The notes: generated by a model from the sequence alone, not told the origin. Shown: positions 3,936-64,000, numbered from the stretch's first letter. The stretch: 64,000 bases of DNA from an uncultured Acetatifactor sp. (GCA_947627535.1 CANQWM010000005.1:58948-122947), one strand, 5' to 3'. Program-made: numbers and translations.

Positions 3936-6470
3936 TTAAACAGGCCTCGAGGCGGTCTCCTTCAGTTCCACTTTATCCAGATGCCAGATTTCATCCACAT
4001 ACTCCTGTATGGTTCTGTCGGAAGTGAACTTACCGGAGCCGGCCACATTGAGAATGGCGCTTTTTGCCCAGCCCGCCTTGTTTCTGTACGCCGCCTCTAC
4101 CTTCTTCTGCGCTTCCGCGTAGGAACGGAAATCCTTCAGAATAAAATAGGTATCCGCCCTGGAAGTGGAAAGCGTATTCAGCAGGGAGTTGTACAGAGGC
4201 CGGAACAGCTCCGTATCCCCGGCATAGGTTCCGTCCACCAGCTGATCCAGGACTCTTCTGATCTCTCCGTCGCTGTTGTAGATATCCATGGGATTGTAAC
4301 CGCCGTTCTGTTCGTAGCCGATGACCTCGTCGGAGCTCAGGCCGAAGATAAACGCATTCTCTTCTCCCACTTCCTCCACGATCTCCACATTGGCGCCGTC
4401 CATGGTGCCCAGCGTCAGCGCGCCGTTCAGCATGAATTTCATGTTGCCGGTGCCGGACGCCTCTTTGCTGGCAGTGGAGATCTGCTCGGATACGTCCGCC
4501 GCCGCAAAGATGATCTCCGCGTTGGAGACGTTGTAGTTCTCAATGAACACCACCTTGATCTTTCCGCCGATGGCAGGGTCGTTGTTGACCACGTCCGCCA
4601 CGGAATTGATCAGCTTGATGGTCAGCTTGGCATTCCGATAGCCTGCGGCGGCCTTTGCGCCGAAGATAAAGGTTCTGGGGAAGAAATCCCTCTCCGGATC
4701 CGCCTTCAGCTGATTGTAGAGATACATCACATGAAGAATATTCAAAAGCTGTCTCTTGTACTCGTGAAGCCGCTTTACCTGCACGTCAAAAATGGAGTCG
4801 GGATCCACGTCAATGCCGTTGTGCTCCTTGATATACTTCGCCAGTCTCAGCTTGTTTTTGCGCTTGATATCCATGAACTCCTTCTGAGCCCTGGCGTTAT
4901 CCGCAATCTCCCTAATCTTTGCGATTTTAGGGAGATCCGTGATCCAACCGTCGCCGACTTTCGCGCTCACCCAGTCCGCCAGCAGCGGGTTGCCGTGGAG
5001 CAGGAATCTTCTCTGGGTGATTCCGTTGGTCTTATTGTTGAACCGCTCGGGATACATTTCGTAAAAATCCCGCAGCTCCTGTTTCTTTAAAATTTCGGTG
5101 TGAAGTCTGGCCACGCCGTTTACGGAATATCCGGCGACAATGGCCATGTGGGCCATCTTGACCTGTCCGTCATACAGAATCGCCATCTTGCGAATCTTTT
5201 CCTGCACATCTACGCCGTAGATGTTGGAGTATTTCTGCTCGATCTCCAGCACAAATCTGCGGTTGATCTCCTCCACGATCTGGTAAATTCTGGGAAGCAG
5301 CCGGGAAAACAGATCAATGGGCCATTTTTCAAGGGCCTCCGCCATGATTGTGTGGTTGGTATAAGCGCAGGTATGGGTGGTGATATACCACGCTTCGTCC
5401 CAGGACAGATCATAATCGTCCAGCAGAATACGCATCAGCTCCGGCACAGCCACGGTGGGGTGCGTGTCGTTTAACTGAAACGTCACCTTCTCGTGGAACT
5501 TATGGATATCGTCATGCTTTTTCATGTATTTTGCCACGGCAGCCTGCACGGACGCGGAGATAAAGAAATACTGCTGCTTTAAGCGAAGCTCCTTGCCCGC
5601 ATAATGGTTGTCGTTGGGATAGAGCACTTCCACAAGGTTTCTGGCCAGGTTTTCCTGCTCCACAGCCTTTCGGTAATCGCCCTGATCGAAGGAATCCAGC
5701 TGGAACACTTCCATGGGCTCCGCGTCCCAGATACGCAGGGTGTTCACAATACCGTTTCCATAGCCTACGATGGGCAGATCGAAGGGGACGGCTCTCACGG
5801 CCTGATATCCCTCCTGAACAAAGCGGCTTCTTCCGTTCTCGTCGGTGCGCATCGCCACATAGCCGCCGAATTTTACGGTCTTTGCGTACTCCGGCCGGCG
5901 CAGCTCAAAGGGGTTGCCGTCAGCCAGCCAGTTGTCCGGCACCTCCACCTGGTAGCCGTCGCGGATTTCCTGCTTGAACATGCCGTACCGGTAGCGGATC
6001 CCGCAGCCGTAAGCGGGATATCCCAGCGTTGCCAGAGAGTCCAGAAAGCATGCGGCCAGACGTCCCAGACCGCCGTTCCCCAGAGCGGCGTCCGGCTCCT
6101 GATCCTCTACCACATTCAGATCCAGTCCCAGTTCCTCCAGCGCTTCCTGCACAGGCTTGTAAGCCTGCATGTTGATCAGGTTGTTTCCCATGGCGCGTCC
6201 CATCAGAAATTCCATGGACATGTAATACACCATCTTGGGGTCTTCCTTCTCATACGCCTTCTGGGTATTCATCCAGTTTTCGATGATCTGATCCTTGATG
6301 GCGAGAGAAGCCGCCTGGAAGATCTGCTGGGGAGTCGCATCCTCCAGCTCCTTGCGGTACTGTGTTCTGATATTGTACAGGACGCTTCTCTTGAAAAGCT
6401 CTTTGTCAAACTTCCGTTTTTCCTTTCCCTTTTCTTTTTCCACCGATTTATTAGGTGTCGCACTTTTCAT
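3936..6470 (-). CDS. glgP: Glycogen/starch phosphorylase
   Basis: LGNGGLGRLAACFLDS, QLNDTHP, QVKRLHEYKRQLLN, PLP-lysine motif EASGTGNMK. Confidence 0.97.
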   Translation of the reverse strand: MKSATPNKSVEKEKGKEKRKFDKELFKRSVLYNIRTQYRKELEDATPQQIFQAASLAIKDQIIENWMNTQKAYEKEDPKMVYYMSMEFLMGRAMGNNLINMQAYKPVQEALEELGLDLNVVEDQEPDAALGNGGLGRLAACFLDSLATLGYPAYGCGIRYRYGMFKQEIRDGYQVEVPDNWLADGNPFELRRPEYAKTVKFGGYVAMRTDENGRSRFVQEGYQAVRAVPFDLPIVGYGNGIVNTLRIWDAEPMEVFQLDSFDQGDYRKAVEQENLARNLVEVLYPNDNHYAGKELRLKQQYFFISASVQAAVAKYMKKHDDIHKFHEKVTFQLNDTHPTVAVPELMRILLDDYDLSWDEAWYITTHTCAYTNHTIMAEALEKWPIDLFSRLLPRIYQIVEEINRRFVLEIEQKYSNIYGVDVQEKIRKMAILYDGQVKMAHMAIVAGYSVNGVARLHTEILKKQELRDFYEMYPERFNNKTNGITQRRFLLHGNPLLADWVSAKVGDGWITDLPKIAKIREIADNARAQKEFMDIKRKNKLRLAKYIKEHNGIDVDPDSIFDVQVKRLHEYKRQLLNILHVMYLYNQLKADPERDFFPRTFIFGAKAAAGYRNAKLTIKLINSVADVVNNDPAIGGKIKVVFIENYNVSNAEIIFAAADVSEQISTASKEASGTGNMKFMLNGALTLGTMDGANVEIVEEVGEENAFIFGLSSDEVIGYEQNGGYNPMDIYNSDGEIRRVLDQLVDGTYAGDTELFRPLYNSLLNTLSTSRADTYFILKDFRSYAEAQKKVEAAYRNKAGWAKSAILNVAGSGKFTSDRTIQEYVDEIWHLDKVELKETASRPV

Positions 6471-58354: not shown

Positions 58355-59092
58355 ATGAAAATAGAGAAGGTAAATGAAAACCAGATCCGCTGTACCCTGA
58401 CGAAAGAAGACCTGATAAGCCGTGAGCTGAAAATCAGCGAGCTGGCTTACGGCACGGAAAAGGCCAAAAACCTTTTTCGGGATATGATGCGTCAGGCCAA
58501 CTTTGAATTTGGCTTTGAAGCCGAGGACATCCCTCTGATGATAGAAGCGATTCCCCTGAACGCCGAGTGCATCGTACTGATCATCACGAAAGTGGAGGAT
58601 CCGGAGGAACTGGATACCCGTTTTTCACGGTTTGCCCCCTCCGTCACCGAGGACAGCGAATATGACGAAGAAACGGAAGAATATGGCGAAACCGCCTCGG
58701 ACGGTGCCGCAGATCTTTTGCAGAATCTGCAGCCCGATGCCCGGGAAACCGTTCAGGGCGGCGGGGCTGCCGACGATAACGCCGCCGCAGACGGGCGCAT
58801 GCGGACAAGAATTTTCCGGATCCGCACCCTGCAGCTTGTGATGGAAGTATCTGCAGTCATCGCGGACCACTATCACGGTCTGAGTTCTCTGTACAAGGAT
58901 GCCTCTTCCGGCCAGTATCTGCTGCTGATGACGCAGGGAGACGAGAGCCGGGAAGGGTTTGACCGCTCCTGCAACATTATCTCCGAATACGGCACCCTCC
59001 TTCGGGCCATGTCGTCCGGAGGTACTTTTCTCGAAGAACACAGCGAAGCTCTGGTTAGGGAAAACGCCGTTCAGACTTTGGGAAAGCTGTAA
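58355..59092 (+). CDS. mecA: ClpC adaptor MecA
   Basis: MKIEKVNENQIRCTLTKEDL, LMIEAIP, C-terminal CNIISEYG; promoter TTGACT-17-TAAGAT at 58267-58295. Confidence 0.88.
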   Translation: MKIEKVNENQIRCTLTKEDLISRELKISELAYGTEKAKNLFRDMMRQANFEFGFEAEDIPLMIEAIPLNAECIVLIITKVEDPEELDTRFSRFAPSVTEDSEYDEETEEYGETASDGAADLLQNLQPDARETVQGGGAADDNAAADGRMRTRIFRIRTLQLVMEVSAVIADHYHGLSSLYKDASSGQYLLLMTQGDESREGFDRSCNIISEYGTLLRAMSSGGTFLEEHSEALVRENAVQTLGKL

Positions 59093-59110
59093 AAAATACA
59101 CCCCGGCATA

Positions 59111-59144
59111 AAAACTGCCGCTCTGTTACAGAGCGGCAATTTTT
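59111..59144. terminator. Bidirectional terminator between mecA and the DUF1858 gene
   Basis: TGCCGCTCTG-tta-CAGAGCGGCA flanked by A and T runs. Confidence 0.8.
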
Positions 59145-59317
59145 GTCATTAAATCATCGATATCCATACCGTGTACCATCGCAGCTTCCTCCAGGGTTTC
59201 TCCCTGTGCGGAAGGGCACCCGAGACAGTGCATGCCCGCCTCCATCAAAACCGGCGCCACATCCGGATTGACGCGCAGGATCTCACCGATGGTCATTTCC
59301 TTGGTGATCTTATTCAT
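59126..59317 (-). CDS. DUF1858 (hybrid-cluster-associated redox disulfide) small protein
   Basis: [14 protein letters not shown]...[23 protein letters not shown]; RBS AAGGAGG; start moved to 59317. Confidence 0.9.
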
Positions 59318-59456
59318 CGTGTCACCTCCTTTTGCATAATCAGTATAATACTTTCTCTCATGCTTGACAAGCAGTTCCATAAAAGAACAAATTATAAAAG
59401 GTTTATAAAACCGGTGCAAAATCGTCACATGTACCCGAAAAAATACACGTCTGCGC

Positions 59457-59485
59457 TTGACTCGATTTCCCGTTTTACATATAAT
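59457..59485 (+). promoter_or_regulatory. SigA promoter of the pfl locus
   Basis: TTGACT-17-TATAAT. Confidence 0.8.
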
Positions 59486-59555
59486 GAAGCTAAGGATTAG
59501 AAGCAACGTTTTTTACTACCAAACTAATTCAAATACTTATAGGAGGCTATTCAAA

Positions 59556-61595
59556 ATGAGAGCAGAATGGACAGATTTTGTAACTGGCAAGTGGGACAAA
59601 GAAATCAATGTCCGCGACTTCATCCAGAGAAACTATCATCCCTATGACGGCGATGAGAGCTTTCTGGCCGGCCCTACTCAGAACACCAAGGATCTGTGGG
59701 CACAGGTGCTTGACCTGCAGAAAAAAGAGAGAGAAGCGGGCGGCGTTCTGGACATGGACACCAAGGTGGTATCTACCATCACCTCCCACGGCCCCGGATA
59801 TCTTGACAAGAGCAAGGAAACCATCGTAGGCTTCCAGACCGACAAGCCCTTCAAGCGTTCCCTGCAGCCTTACGGCGGTATCCGCATGGCGGAGAAGGCG
59901 TGCGCAGACAACGGCTATGAAGTGGATCCTGAGATTTCCGAGTTTTTCACGGTTCACAGAAAGACTCACAACGCAGGCTGCTTTGACGCTTACAATCAGG
60001 AAATGAGAGCATGCCGTTCTTCCCATATCATCACCGGCCTTCCTGACGCTTACGGCCGCGGCCGTATCATCGGCGACTACAGACGTGTCGCTCTGTACGG
60101 CATTGACAGACTGATCGAGGATAAGCAGGCTCAGAAGGATTCCACCGGCCGCGTGATGACCGATGACGTAATCCGTCTGCGCGAGGAGATCTCCGAGCAG
60201 ATGACCGCTCTGAAGCTGATGAAGGAGATGGCTGCATCCTACGGCTGCGATATTTCCAAGCCCGCCGCAAATGTAAAAGAGGCAATCCAGTGGACCTACT
60301 TCGGATATCTGTGCGCTGTAAAGGAGCAGAACGGCGCCGCAATGTCTCTGGGACGTACCTCCACCTTCCTCGACTGCTATGCAGAGAGAGATTTAAAGAA
60401 CGGCACCTTTACCGAGGAACAGATCCAGGAGTTCGTGGATCACTTCATCATGAAGCTTCGCTGCATCAAGTTTGCACGTACTCCCGAGTACAACCAGATC
60501 TTCGCGGGCGATCCCGTTTGGGTCACCGAGTCTCTGGGCGGTGTAGGCGTTGACGGCAGACCCATGGTTACAAAGATGAGCTTCCGTTACCTGAATACCT
60601 TAACCAACCTCGGACCTTCTCCCGAGCCCAACCTTACCGTTCTCTGGTCCACAAGACTTCCCGAGAACTGGAAGAGATACTGCGCGAAGATGTCCATTCA
60701 GACCTCTTCCATCCAGTACGAGAATGACGACCTGATGAGAGTGGTTCACGGCGATGACTATGGTATCGCATGCTGCGTATCCTCCATGGTAATCGGCAAG
60801 GAGATGCAGTTCTTCGGTGCCCGCGCCAATGTCGCGAAGTGCCTGCTTTACGCTTTGAACGGCGGTGTGGACGAAGTTACCAAGAAGCAGGTCGGCCCCA
60901 AGTACCGCCCTGTTACCGGCGACGTTCTGGATTACGACGACGTTTACAGCAAGTTTATGGATATGCTGGAATGGCAGGCGGATGTGTATGTAAATACCCT
61001 GAACATCATACACTATATGCATGACAAATACTGCTATGAGAGAGCAGAGATGGCACTGCATGACAGAGACGTAAAGCGCTACTTTGCAACCGGTGTCGCA
61101 GGTCTTTCCATCGTAGCCGACTCCCTTTCCGCCATCAAGTATGCGAAGGTGGAGCCCATCCGTGACGAGGACGGCATTATCGTAGACTTTAAGACGACCG
61201 GCGACTTCCCGAAATACGGCAACGACGACGACCGTGTTGACGAGATCGCTCAGGATGTGGTACACAAGTTCATGACCGCTGTAAGAAGACATCACACCTA
61301 CAGAAACGGCATCCCTACCACCTCCATCCTGACCATTACCTCTAACGTTACCTATGGTAAGGCTACCGGTAATACACCCGACGGACGTAAGAAGGGCCAG
61401 CCTTTCGCTCCCGGTGCGAACCCCATGCACGGCCGCGATACCCACGGCGCAGTCGCTTCCCTTTCCTCCGTCTCCAAGCTGCCCTTCAATGATGCGCAGG
61501 ATGGTATCTCCAATACCTTCACCATCATTCCCGGCGCTCTGGGCAAGGAAGATAAGGTGTTCGCAGGCGACATCGAACTGGATCTGAACAAATAA
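59556..61595 (+). CDS. pflB: Pyruvate formate-lyase catalytic core (679 aa) lacking the glycyl-radical domain
   Basis: [25 protein letters not shown], active-site IACCVS (Cys406-Cys407), [13 protein letters not shown]; ends [19 protein letters not shown]-stop with no RVSGY; RBS AGGAGG. Confidence 0.93.
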
Positions 61596-61630
61596 TTCTG
61601 CTTTGAATAAAATATGTTTCAGGAGGCACT

Positions 61631-61834
61631 ATGGACGAAAAAAATATGATTGACGACCTGGTTAAAATGCTCGATTCCGGCATGGCTGACGGCGTCGGCC
61701 ATGTGAATGTGGACTATGACGGACAGGGCGAACAGTCAAAAAACGTTCAGACAATGGGCTGCACGGATTGCTCCAGAACGCCGCTGGCCTGCAGCGTGCC
61801 CACCCTTGAACAGGGACTGGACGATTATCAATGA
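61631..61834 (+). CDS. 67-aa protein: glycyl-radical-domain-like N-terminus with a Cys-rich tail and no radical Gly
   Basis: RBS AGGAGG at 61621-26; IDDLVKMLDSGMADGVGHVNV aligns without gaps to [21 protein letters not shown] of the downstream GrcA; C44xxC47 and C54. Confidence 0.8.
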   Translation: MDEKNMIDDLVKMLDSGMADGVGHVNVDYDGQGEQSKNVQTMGCTDCSRTPLACSVPTLEQGLDDYQ

Positions 61835-61858
61835 CCGGGCCCGCAAAAAAGGAACCAG

Positions 61859-61886
61859 CCGGGGAACGGGTTTCCCCGCTCCCCGG
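61859..61886 (+). other. GC-rich stem-loop without a U tract, upstream of grcA
   Basis: CCGGGGAACGGG-tttc-CCCGCTCCCCGG (11 of 12 pairs), followed by AAACAAAAC. Confidence 0.6.
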
Positions 61887-61936
61887 AAACAAAACAACTT
61901 TCATACTACCAATACTATCATAAGGAGGACAAAACT

Positions 61937-62179
61937 ATGGCAGCAAGCACAGCACAGGTTGACAACCTTGTAAACTTATTGGATGGATACGCAACAAAAG
62001 GCGGCCATCACCTGAACGTGAACGTTCTGAACAGAGACACGCTTCTGGACGCTCAGAAGCATCCGGAGAATTATCCTCAGCTTACCATCCGGGTATCCGG
62101 ATATGCAGTCAACTTCATCAAGCTGACTCCTGAACAGCAGGCTGACGTTATCTCCCGTACCTTCCATGAGTCGATCTGA
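61937..62179 (+). CDS. grcA: Stand-alone glycyl-radical domain (GrcA/YfiD-like), 80 aa
   Basis: [28 protein letters not shown] (Gly55), ISRTFH; RBS AAGGAGG. Confidence 0.95.
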
Positions 62180-62219
62180 GATACTTCGGCTTAAAAATCA
62201 GTTAGGATAACTGACACAG

Positions 62220-62248
62220 AAGGAGCACCGCCAGCCGGTGCTCCTTTT
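62220..62248 (+). terminator. Intrinsic terminator between grcA and pflA
   Basis: AAGGAGCACCG-ccagc-CGGTGCTCCTT-TT. Confidence 0.8.
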
Positions 62249-62298
62249 CAGTTCCTTGGGGAATACGATAAACAGGAAAATGAAAGGAGAAATGCGCT

Positions 62299-63051
62299 AT
62301 GCAGGGCAGGATCCACTCTTTGGAAAGTTTCGGCACAGTCGACGGCCCCGGCACCCGTTTTGTGGTATTTGTGCAGGGCTGTCCCATGCGATGCGCTTAC
62401 TGCCACAATCCCGATACCTGGGACATGAACGGCGGCACGATGATGGAGCCATCCTATATCATCGAACAGTACGAACGAAACAGCCCTTTTTATGAACACG
62501 GAGGCGGGCTGACCGTCACCGGCGGAGAACCTCTGATGCAGATTGATTTCCTGATCGATCTTTTCACCCTTGCAAAGGAAAAGGATATTCATACCTGTAT
62601 CGACACCTCCGGAATTGCCTTTAATCCTGAGAGCGACACGCAGCAGGAAAAACTGGACCGGCTCATGAAGCTGACAGATCTTGTTATGCTCGATATCAAA
62701 CACATTGACCCGGAAAAGCACAAGGACCTGACCGGACAGCCCAATAAGAATATTCTGAAATTTGCCGAATATCTGAACGAGAAAAAGGTTGACATGTGGA
62801 TCCGTCATGTAGTCGTTCCGGGCATTACAGACGATGACAAATACCTGTTTGATCTGGGATATTATATCGGCCAGTTTGAAAATCTGAAGGCTCTGGATGT
62901 TCTCCCGTATCATACCATGGGAGAGAAAAAATATCAGAGTCTGGGAATGGAATACCGGCTGAAGGGCGTTCCGCCCATGGACCAGAAAAAGCTGCTGGAG
63001 AAAAAACAGGTGATCCTGGAAGGCATCAAAAAGCGGCGGGCGCAAATTTAA
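62299..63051 (+). CDS. pflA: Pyruvate formate-lyase activating enzyme (radical SAM)
   Basis: ESFGTVDGPG, CPMRCAYCHNPDTW (CxxxCxxC), TGGEPLMQ, LDIKHID, LPYHTMG. Confidence 0.96.
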   Translation: MQGRIHSLESFGTVDGPGTRFVVFVQGCPMRCAYCHNPDTWDMNGGTMMEPSYIIEQYERNSPFYEHGGGLTVTGGEPLMQIDFLIDLFTLAKEKDIHTCIDTSGIAFNPESDTQQEKLDRLMKLTDLVMLDIKHIDPEKHKDLTGQPNKNILKFAEYLNEKKVDMWIRHVVVPGITDDDKYLFDLGYYIGQFENLKALDVLPYHTMGEKKYQSLGMEYRLKGVPPMDQKKLLEKKQVILEGIKKRRAQI

Positions 63052-63142
63052 AATAATCCTTGTAATTGCCCGAGGATTATATTACAATAAGAAAGATGAC
63101 TGACTTACATGGTTTAGTTTTAATAAAAGGAGGATTCATAGT

Positions 63143-63313
63143 ATGGCATACGTAATCAGCGATGCTTGTGTGGCCTGCGGCGCATGCGAGGCTCAGTGCC
63201 CCGTAGGTGCGATCAGCATGGGGGACGGAAAGTTCGAGATCGACCCCGAAAAGTGCATTGACTGCGGTTCCTGCGCAGGCACCTGCCCTACCGGATCTAT
63301 CTCTCAGGGTTAA
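63143..63313 (+). CDS. fdx: 2[4Fe-4S] ferredoxin, 56 aa
   Basis: Absent from the ORF track: MAYVISDACVACGACEAQCPVGAIS...CIDCGSCAGTCPTGSISQG; two CxxCxxCxxxCP motifs; RBS AAGGAGG; promoter TTGTAA-17-TACAAT at 63060-63088. Confidence 0.95.
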   Translation: MAYVISDACVACGACEAQCPVGAISMGDGKFEIDPEKCIDCGSCAGTCPTGSISQG

Positions 63314-63330
63314 TAAAAATTCTGAAAGTT

Positions 63331-63363
63331 AAGGCACCTCATTGCGAGGTGCCTTTCTTTTTT
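63331..63363. terminator. Terminator after the ferredoxin gene, at the convergence with the MerR-like gene
   Basis: AAGGCACCTC-attgc-GAGGTGCCTT plus a T tract. Confidence 0.8.
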
Positions 63364-64000
63364 TTCCCAAGACCAAACTGTCTGGATTTCGTTTTTTTCC
63401 TCAACAGCTCGTCCATCCTTTTATAATGCTCCTCATCCCGTTCCGCGAGCATCTTATCCCGGAGTTCCTCCCGTTCTTCCTGCATTCTGAACTGATAGTC
63501 CAGTTCCTTTACGACGCTTTCCTTGATCTCTTGACAGAGCTCGCCGTTATTTTCCCTGAGTGTCTCCCGTATCAGCTGCTGCAGGAGCCACTGCAGCCTT
63601 CTGGACTTGTCCTCTCTGCTCTCAGTCGTAACCCGGCGGTCTCTGCTGTCTACAATGTCTATGGCAAGGCCCGTTTCTTCCTGTTCGTATTCCGGTTCCG
63701 CATTTTTCTGTTCCTCCGTCTTTGGCATGCTTTCAGGTATGTCTGTCCCCCTGCCCTGCTCTCCGTCAGGAAGTACATCCAGCTTTCCATCGCGCAGGAT
63801 CATTTTAATCGCTTTCAACTGCAACCCTCTCTCCTTCATTCCTTTAATCTGTTTAAACCGCTCTACATCCTCCTGAGTATAGTAGCGATGGCCGAGCTCA
63901 TTGCGCTTGATCGGCAGATGCAGTTCTTCTTCCCAATAGCGCAGCACATGGCTTTCGACCTTCACTTCTTTTGCAGCGTCAGAAATAAACAGATAGTCAC
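63339..64000 (-). CDS. MerR-family HTH protein, 5' end beyond the window
   Basis: Frame stays open to the window edge (DYLFISDAAKEVKVESHVLRYWEEEL...RNELGHRYY); C-terminal coiled coil. Confidence 0.85.
   Translation of the reverse strand, partial: DYLFISDAAKEVKVESHVLRYWEEELHLPIKRNELGHRYYTQEDVERFKQIKGMKERGLQLKAIKMILRDGKLDVLPDGEQGRGTDIPESMPKTEEQKNAEPEYEQEETGLAIDIVDSRDRRVTTESREDKSRRLQWLLQQLIRETLRENNGELCQEIKESVVKELDYQFRMQEEREELRDKMLAERDEEHYKRMDELLRKKTKSRQFGLGKKKKGTSQ

Follow-up and report, generated by a model that had tools for sequence, protein, structure and literature searches.

The pyruvate formate-lyase (PFL) locus described here encodes, between a truncated catalytic core and a detached glycyl radical domain, a 67-residue protein that is probably an undescribed accessory subunit of PFL. 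The conservation pattern of its relatives establishes the gene as a bona fide, widespread and strongly constrained protein-coding gene with a predicted product, whose N-terminal half is homologous to the beginning of the radical domain and whose C-terminal half bears a motif of its own. PFL is the central enzyme converting pyruvate to formate and acetyl-CoA in many gut Lachnospiraceae and Ruminococcaceae, and its textbook form is one polypeptide, which a spare part (GrcA/YfiD) may supplement. The window, that is, the whole stretch of DNA analysed, comprises 64,000 nt of one strand from an uncultured Acetatifactor sp. (GCA_947627535.1 CANQWM010000005.1:58948-122947), and all positions given below are counted within it unless a locus of a relative is named.

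Four consecutive genes on the plus strand (59556-63051) encode the PFL core, the 67-residue small protein, GrcA3 and the PFL-activating enzyme, in this order (table 1). The core matches only positions 1-51 of the 106 positions of the Pfam Gly_radical model and positions 2-665 of 744 of the NCBIfam model TIGR01255; it ends at about residue 680 of E. coli PFL and is thus without the helix 683-692, the strand beta10, the Gly loop and the C-terminal helix. The 80-residue protein encoded behind the small gene covers positions 50-106 of Gly_radical and scores 161.5 bits with NF038360, "autonomous glycyl radical cofactor GrcA3", above the cutoff of 158 set for this model. Its residues 9-79 align to E. 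coli PFL 683-758 (PDB 1H16/1CM5), and its residues 20-80 to YfiD residues 67-127 (PDB 6OWR). Taken together, core and GrcA3 therefore amount to a whole PFL, with the cut near E. coli residue 680, and the 67-residue gene is an extra element placed at the cut. The original prediction for this stretch had described an ORF of this length between the PFL core and grcA, with an AGGAGG ribosome-binding site, an intact frame, cysteines at positions 44, 47 and 54 and no RVSGY motif, and our reading of the sequence agrees with it on each of these points.

Table 1. Features of the split PFL locus, in window coordinates
Feature	Position	Strand	Basis
Truncated pyruvate formate-lyase core, 679 aa	59556..61595	+	Pfam PFL-like 733 bits
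Acidic tail of the core, 12 residues	61557..61592	+	tail alignment, about 60 distinct loci
Ribosome-binding site AGGAGG of the small gene, four nt 5' of the ATG	61621..61626	+	sequence
Small gene, 67 aa, ATG start	61631..61834	+	ORF; 1751 90%-identity clusters; dN/dS 0.08
Residues 1-33, duplicate of the helix and beta10 strand at the N-terminus of GrcA3	61631..61729	+	hhalign, NCBIfam GrcA3 2-34
Residues 31-42, acidic, polar linker that varies in length and sequence	61721..61756	+	alignment; dN/dS 0.18; pLDDT <50
Residues 43-64, motif D46-C47-x6-C54-x-V-P57-T58-L59-x-x-G62-x-D64	61757..61822	+	alignment; dN/dS 0.025
GC-rich hairpin without U-run, spacer between small gene and grcA3	61859..61886	+	fold -29 kcal/mol, z -1.6
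GrcA3, 80 aa, detached radical domain with RVSGY	61937..62179	+	NCBIfam NF038360
PFL-activating enzyme (radical SAM)	62299..63051	+	NCBIfam TIGR02493 295.5 bits, cutoff 231.75; Pfam Radical_SAM, Fer4_12

Several further features surround the cut. An acidic tail, VFxGD(L/I)(D/E)(L/I/V)(D/E)L.., is common to all split cores, those of a divergent Ruminococcaceae branch included (core ends L081-L170), whereas the unsplit E. coli PFL has no counterpart to it and reads EVRKTNLAGLMDGY at the same position; the small protein or GrcA3 may use this tail for docking. The hairpin in the spacer before grcA3 is probably not a conserved element, because the length of this spacer ranges from 2 to 397 nt among relatives; one RNA contig of a related strain skips positions 61832-61922, which contain the hairpin. 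A search of 59000-63400 against Rfam gave no match at E <= 1, and an intron or RNA element is therefore not the cause of the PFL split. We likewise rejected a mobile element, given the variable spacers and an ORF that evolves as a protein. Directly 3' of the activase gene lies a gene for a 56-residue 2x[4Fe-4S] ferredoxin (63143-63313, plus strand), which could be the electron donor for the activase (PFL-AE), and a protein of the redox-disulfide DUF1858 type is encoded divergently upstream of the core (59126-59320, minus strand). The order MecA, DUF1858, PFL trio, activase, ferredoxin, MerR, DnaB is also kept in Kineothrix (L083).

Relatives of the 67-residue ORF form 1751 clusters at 90% identity, and 134 representatives remain at 50% identity. 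They occur in at least 498 species-level genomes, with identities down to about 33%, and nearly all are about 60-90 residues long. The ATG is kept, and a GGAGG-like ribosome-binding site precedes the ORF in nearly all of them. Among 81 close orthologues, dN/dS was 0.078 for the small gene, compared with 0.046 for GrcA3, 0.062 for the activase and 0.042 for the core, and synonymous change was near saturation (dS about 1.5). Within the small gene, dN/dS was 0.068 in the N-terminal part, 0.18 in the linker and 0.025 in the C-terminal motif, so that constraint is strongest in the half without resemblance to GrcA. The spacers on either side of the gene vary freely, their length ranging from -1 to about 160 nt on one side and, on the grcA3 side, over the range given above. 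These values bear on the alternative that the original prediction had itself raised, a decaying duplicate of the PFL C-terminus. A functionless remnant of this kind, or a chance ORF, would account for an N-terminal half that duplicates PFL/GrcA sequence without the radical glycine, but the purifying selection, strongest in the half that is not GrcA-like, and the retention of a length of 64-89 residues and of a ribosome-binding site across so many divergent species refute it, and we give it practically no credence. The saturated synonymous change and the lack of an Rfam match also speak against an overlapping RNA or DNA element as the source of the conservation. Transcription of the small gene with its neighbours is supported by one metatranscriptome contig that spans the end of the core, the small ORF and the start of grcA3 in one piece; a comparison of RNA depth along the operon is confounded, in these metatranscriptome contigs, by cross-mapping of the conserved pfl gene.

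We next consider the N-terminal half. A profile-profile comparison (hhalign) of 212 small-family sequences with 109 GrcA3 sequences aligned residues 1-33 of the small protein to residues 2-34 of GrcA3 over 33 columns, with a probability of 97% and an E-value of 1.1e-10. Distant members of the family also match the NCBIfam GrcA3 model at positions 2-34, with E-values down to 1.5e-6, far under its cutoff. The homologous stretch corresponds to about residues 683-709 of E. coli PFL, that is, to the helix TNLAGLMDGY (683-692) and the barrel strand beta10 (GGQHLNVNV). The resemblance reported initially, an ungapped match of residues 7-29 of the small protein to GrcA3 residues 8-30 with 9 of 23 positions identical, was reproduced and proved to be part of this true homology. 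Over a 22-residue segment, 133 distinct small protein/GrcA3 pairs showed a mean ungapped identity of 42% (range 27-50%), compared with 9% +/- 6% (maximum 32%) for shuffled sequences, and the match is thus far beyond chance.

A similarity at the DNA level had also been pointed out, and ttgacgacctggttaa and ttgacaaccttgtaaa are indeed identical at 13 of 16 positions. Protein identity was however the same in cognate and non-cognate small protein/GrcA3 pairs (0.416 vs 0.415, p 0.39), which excludes gene conversion between the small gene and grcA3 and indicates that the duplication is old. Nucleotide identity was 0.530 in cognate and 0.518 in non-cognate pairs, an excess expected from shared codon usage, and the DNA resemblance is only a reflection of the protein similarity.

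The residues that are strongly conserved in this half are, with one exception, the same as those at the aligned GrcA3/PFL positions: D15, G21, H24, N26 and the hydrophobic helix face I7/L10/V11/L14. The exception is G23, which aligns with H24 of GrcA3 and Q703 of PFL. These shared residues suggest that the copy sits in a closely similar packing environment. The resemblance stops short of the radical site. Neither RVSGY nor an equivalent is present in the 67-residue protein or anywhere in the family alignment; a Pfam search with this protein gave no match at E <= 1, and its score against the NCBIfam GrcA3 model was 13.4 bits (28.2 bits for the best family member), below the cutoff of 158. Since it lacks RVSGY and falls outside both the Gly_radical and the GrcA3 models, the small protein cannot carry the radical and is not a GrcA.

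The family consensus reads M..(I/V)DD(L/I)V.MLD..M..G.GH.NV.V in the N-terminal part and, after the variable acidic linker, K.V.T...DC.....AC.VPTL..G.D, followed by an acidic tail. In the alignment of 212 sequences, G23 and P57 are invariant (100%), followed by C54 (99%), D15 and H24 (98%), N26 (96%), C47 and T58 (95%) and A53 (94%); a separate alignment of 137 sequences agrees with these figures. The original prediction had taken a CxxC...C pattern as the signature of the protein. This holds for C47 and C54 and not for C44, which is Cys in only 56% of the sequences and Ser in 32%. The conserved pair is therefore C47-x6-C54, and the family as such does not have a classical CxxC site for redox chemistry or metal binding. 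With hhalign, the C-terminal half showed no detectable homology either to the rest of GrcA3 (E 0.18) or to the core (E 0.55). The segment L-A-C-S-V-P-T-L of the small protein (61787-61810) resembles the catalytic cysteine loop of the core, I-A-C-C-V-S-S-M (60768-60791); common descent of the two was considered and rejected, as the best hhalign point, C54 opposite the catalytic C406, is that of the non-significant core comparison. A sequence search of the PDB with the family profile returned chance matches only. Modelled alone with AF2 (137 sequences), the small protein is predicted to form a helix (residues 3-19) and a short hairpin (25-27/39-41) at a pLDDT of 58, with no confident tertiary fold, as would be expected of a protein that folds on a partner. 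An AF2 model of a core-small protein fusion, computed from a single sequence without alignment, had a pLDDT of 33 and was uninformative.

To place the family in its genomic context, we examined 170 loci, made up of 80 genome loci, 80 metagenome loci and ten places for seven individually looked-up distant members. In all 170, every one of which was found through the small gene, a truncated core lies directly upstream of it wherever the flank is readable, and the gene co-occurs exclusively with split PFL among the loci examined, a point that the original prediction had proposed to check. GrcA follows the small gene in all loci that extend that far, except in two metagenome contigs. In one of these (L143, 1915-3565), an ORF for a MATE-like transporter stands downstream of the small gene in place of GrcA3; the other is L144, and in both contigs core and small gene are present while matches to GrcA3 and activase are missing downstream. 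Sister contigs with an identical small protein do carry GrcA3, and the two exceptions are probably rearrangements or chimeric assemblies. The core frame is interrupted in two further metagenome contigs (L140, with a frameshift near core residue 493 at 2862-2875, and L141), in which the small gene and grcA3 are intact; these interruptions are assembly errors or pseudogenised cores. The activase gene usually comes next after GrcA; it is 1-1.8 kb off or locally absent in some loci, and it is not adjacent in L167 and L170. An insert of 1-1.8 kb separates grcA3 from the activase gene in about ten genomes (L004, L019, L027, L029, L034, L046, L049, L072, L078, L024), and in the first of these it encodes a multi-pass membrane protein of 481 residues on the opposite strand (4570-6015, minus).

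Carriers among the Lachnospiraceae are Acetatifactor, Kineothrix, Lachnoclostridium phytofermentans and Anaeromicropila. A divergent branch, about 35-45% identical, comprises Ruminococcaceae bacterium FB2012, Ruminococcus sp. and other Clostridia MAGs; it keeps the order core-small-GrcA and has GACAQPTEL in place of ACSVPTL. Stop and start codons overlap or abut in this branch (L167, L168, L169, L170): the core stop overlaps the start of the small gene in L167 (5001), and in L169 the small gene and grcA share 11 nt (5197-5207). Such junctions suggest translational coupling and hence an equimolar, 1:1:1 synthesis of the three chains, which would fit a constitutive subunit better than a conditional inhibitor.

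What such a subunit might do is best discussed with reference to E. coli PFL. After cleavage by oxygen, this enzyme keeps residues 696-733, which duplicate the beta-strand of YfiD (Andorfer et al. 2021, PMC8683613). When it is truncated at residue 695 (tPFL), YfiD binding is undetectable and installation of the glycyl radical is lower, and residues 696-733 were accordingly proposed to be a recognition element for YfiD, which moves aside and is not cut off (PMC8683613). The account that we place first, while holding it only tentatively, is that the small protein is the third polypeptide of the split PFL, docking on the core by mimicry of beta10 and recruiting, or handing over to, GrcA3. We infer core binding, the slot occupied, the hand-over and any cysteine chemistry from the N-terminal homology, the genomic linkage and one experimental precedent, that of E. 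coli tPFL. The small protein would have originated as a paralogous copy of about the first 30 residues of the detached radical domain (the amphipathic helix and beta10, E. coli PFL 683-709), and would then have gained a new C-terminal module, marked by an invariant proline and by two cysteines that are almost always present (C47-x6-C54-x-V-P57-T-L).

Synthesised along with the core, the protein would dock on it through its beta10-like helix and strand, so that the open ten-stranded barrel would never have an empty strand slot. The docked protein would keep the core competent and recruit, or hand over to, GrcA3, which the activase would load with the radical. The C-terminal module, tethered just after the strand, would be placed about where the glycine finger comes in, facing the catalytic Cys-Cys loop, and might there act as a cap, make a thiol or metal contact, or touch GrcA3 or the activase. 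We thus propose that the small protein takes over, as a separately encoded chain, the part that residues 696-733 play in oxygen-cleaved E. coli PFL: the split core would be a natural tPFL, cut even further upstream, to which the small protein supplies the missing duplicate strand in trans. Two points weigh against this mechanism. If the chains are made 1:1:1, the small protein and GrcA3 cannot share one beta10 slot per protomer, and either occupancy is sequential or the small protein binds elsewhere. In addition, the most constrained part of the protein, its C-terminal motif, is left unexplained by docking.

The original prediction had put forward a protective plug, a competitive inhibitor or a redox or metal switch, and the constraint on the C-terminal motif speaks for a conditional inhibitor or switch of this kind, which would block the slot of GrcA3, be released or locked through cysteine oxidation or a metal, and so gate the docking of the radical cartridge. 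Such a role can draw on the same homology and linkage as the docking mechanism, and on the redox-disulfide DUF1858 protein and the ferredoxin that flank the operon. The two nearly invariant cysteines and the nearly invariant His24 would also be in keeping with it, although the histidine is conserved in GrcA3 and PFL as well, for reasons of fold, and two such cysteines, with C44 so often replaced, are too few for a self-contained Cys4 site. As the overlapping stop and start codons moreover suggest constitutive equimolar synthesis and not regulated expression, we consider a switch unlikely.

A role on free GrcA3 or on the activase instead of the core, as a strand-pairing chaperone or safety catch or by presenting GrcA3 to PFL-AE, seems to us similarly doubtful. 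The strand of YfiD itself has been proposed to hinder the activation of free YfiD, with a need for a recognition element (PMC8683613). The position of the small gene directly before grcA3, in loci extending that far and apart from the two exceptional contigs, and the poor order of the small protein when modelled alone would both suit a factor of this type. However, one would sooner expect a copied strand to imitate its original than to pair with it, the N-termini of cognate small proteins and GrcA3 showed no covariation, and the activase gene is not always adjacent, as the inserts and the two divergent loci described above show.

A reading that we hold to be rather improbable sees the small protein as a stoichiometric "dummy cartridge", whose beta10 copy fills the slot and whose two cysteines take the place of the glycine finger, facing the catalytic Cys-Cys loop, and form a reversible disulfide or a shared metal site, leaving a radical-free, oxygen-proof resting core into which activated GrcA3 swaps and out of which it swaps again once damaged. 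Were it true, PFL oxygen tolerance in gut Clostridia would involve a built-in exchange of cartridges, and the protein would represent a new class of glycyl radical enzyme (GRE) accessory subunits, derived from the enzyme's own radical domain. Finally, although a small cysteine-containing peptide encoded near a radical SAM gene recalls a RiPP-like precursor or another substrate modified at its Cys motif, this is very improbable here, since the radical SAM enzyme matches the PFL activase at equivalog level, has no SPASM or extra domains and is missing from some loci, genes for a protease or an exporter are lacking, the neighbours being unrelated housekeeping genes, and the N-terminal half copies a structural element of a GRE and is no leader peptide.

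Whichever role applies, the genes of a three-polypeptide PFL, consisting of a truncated core, GrcA3 and a radical-less protein that links a copy of the putative docking helix and strand with a new Cys motif, are widespread. Our literature searches found no description of a split PFL (Lachnospiraceae included), of GrcA3 or of the small protein; the latter has no qualifying Pfam or NCBIfam family and no PDB entry, and the sources that name it call it "hypothetical protein". In E. coli, it is a puzzle why a duplicate beta10 strand should be needed for the docking and activation of the spare part, and here this element is isolated as a 67-residue protein, which makes the question testable. The same protein may account for the way in which strict anaerobes deal with oxygen damage to PFL, and could be of use in engineering modular, repairable glycyl radical enzymes.

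Three groups of known systems offer themselves for comparison. The small subunits of other GREs (HPAD gamma, BSS beta/gamma, MASS beta/gamma/delta) are thought to modulate the dynamics, stability or activation of the radical domain, and resemble HiPIP or rubredoxin, using Cys4 or Cys3His sites to bind [4Fe-4S] or Fe (PMC13450708). A 2026 review of GREs lists accessory subunits in these three enzymes only and names PFL for spare-part proteins only (PMC13450708). The protein described here is, like them, a short cysteine-containing polypeptide encoded beside the catalytic subunit. It differs from them in having only two nearly invariant cysteines in place of four conserved metal ligands, in lacking any similarity to HiPIP or rubredoxin that sequence searches of Pfam and the PDB could detect, and in deriving from the GRE itself.

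GrcA/YfiD, GrcA2, GrcA3 and phage T4 Y06I are closer in descent. They too are small and derived from the PFL C-terminus, and the homology of helix and strand links GrcA3 directly to the small protein. Their role is to complement a PFL that lacks a working radical domain, whereas the small protein has neither RVSGY nor the glycine loop nor the C-terminal helix.

The third comparison is with the segment 696-733 that E. coli PFL keeps after cleavage by oxygen. In both cases a second, radical-less copy of beta10 exists beside that of the spare-part protein. The small protein is however a separate gene product and has the preceding helix in addition; in place of the helix 711-725 and the half Gly loop of the cleaved enzyme (cPFL), it carries an unrelated Cys motif. 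Moreover, the E. coli situation arises from damage by O2, whereas the arrangement encoded in these Clostridia is constitutive.
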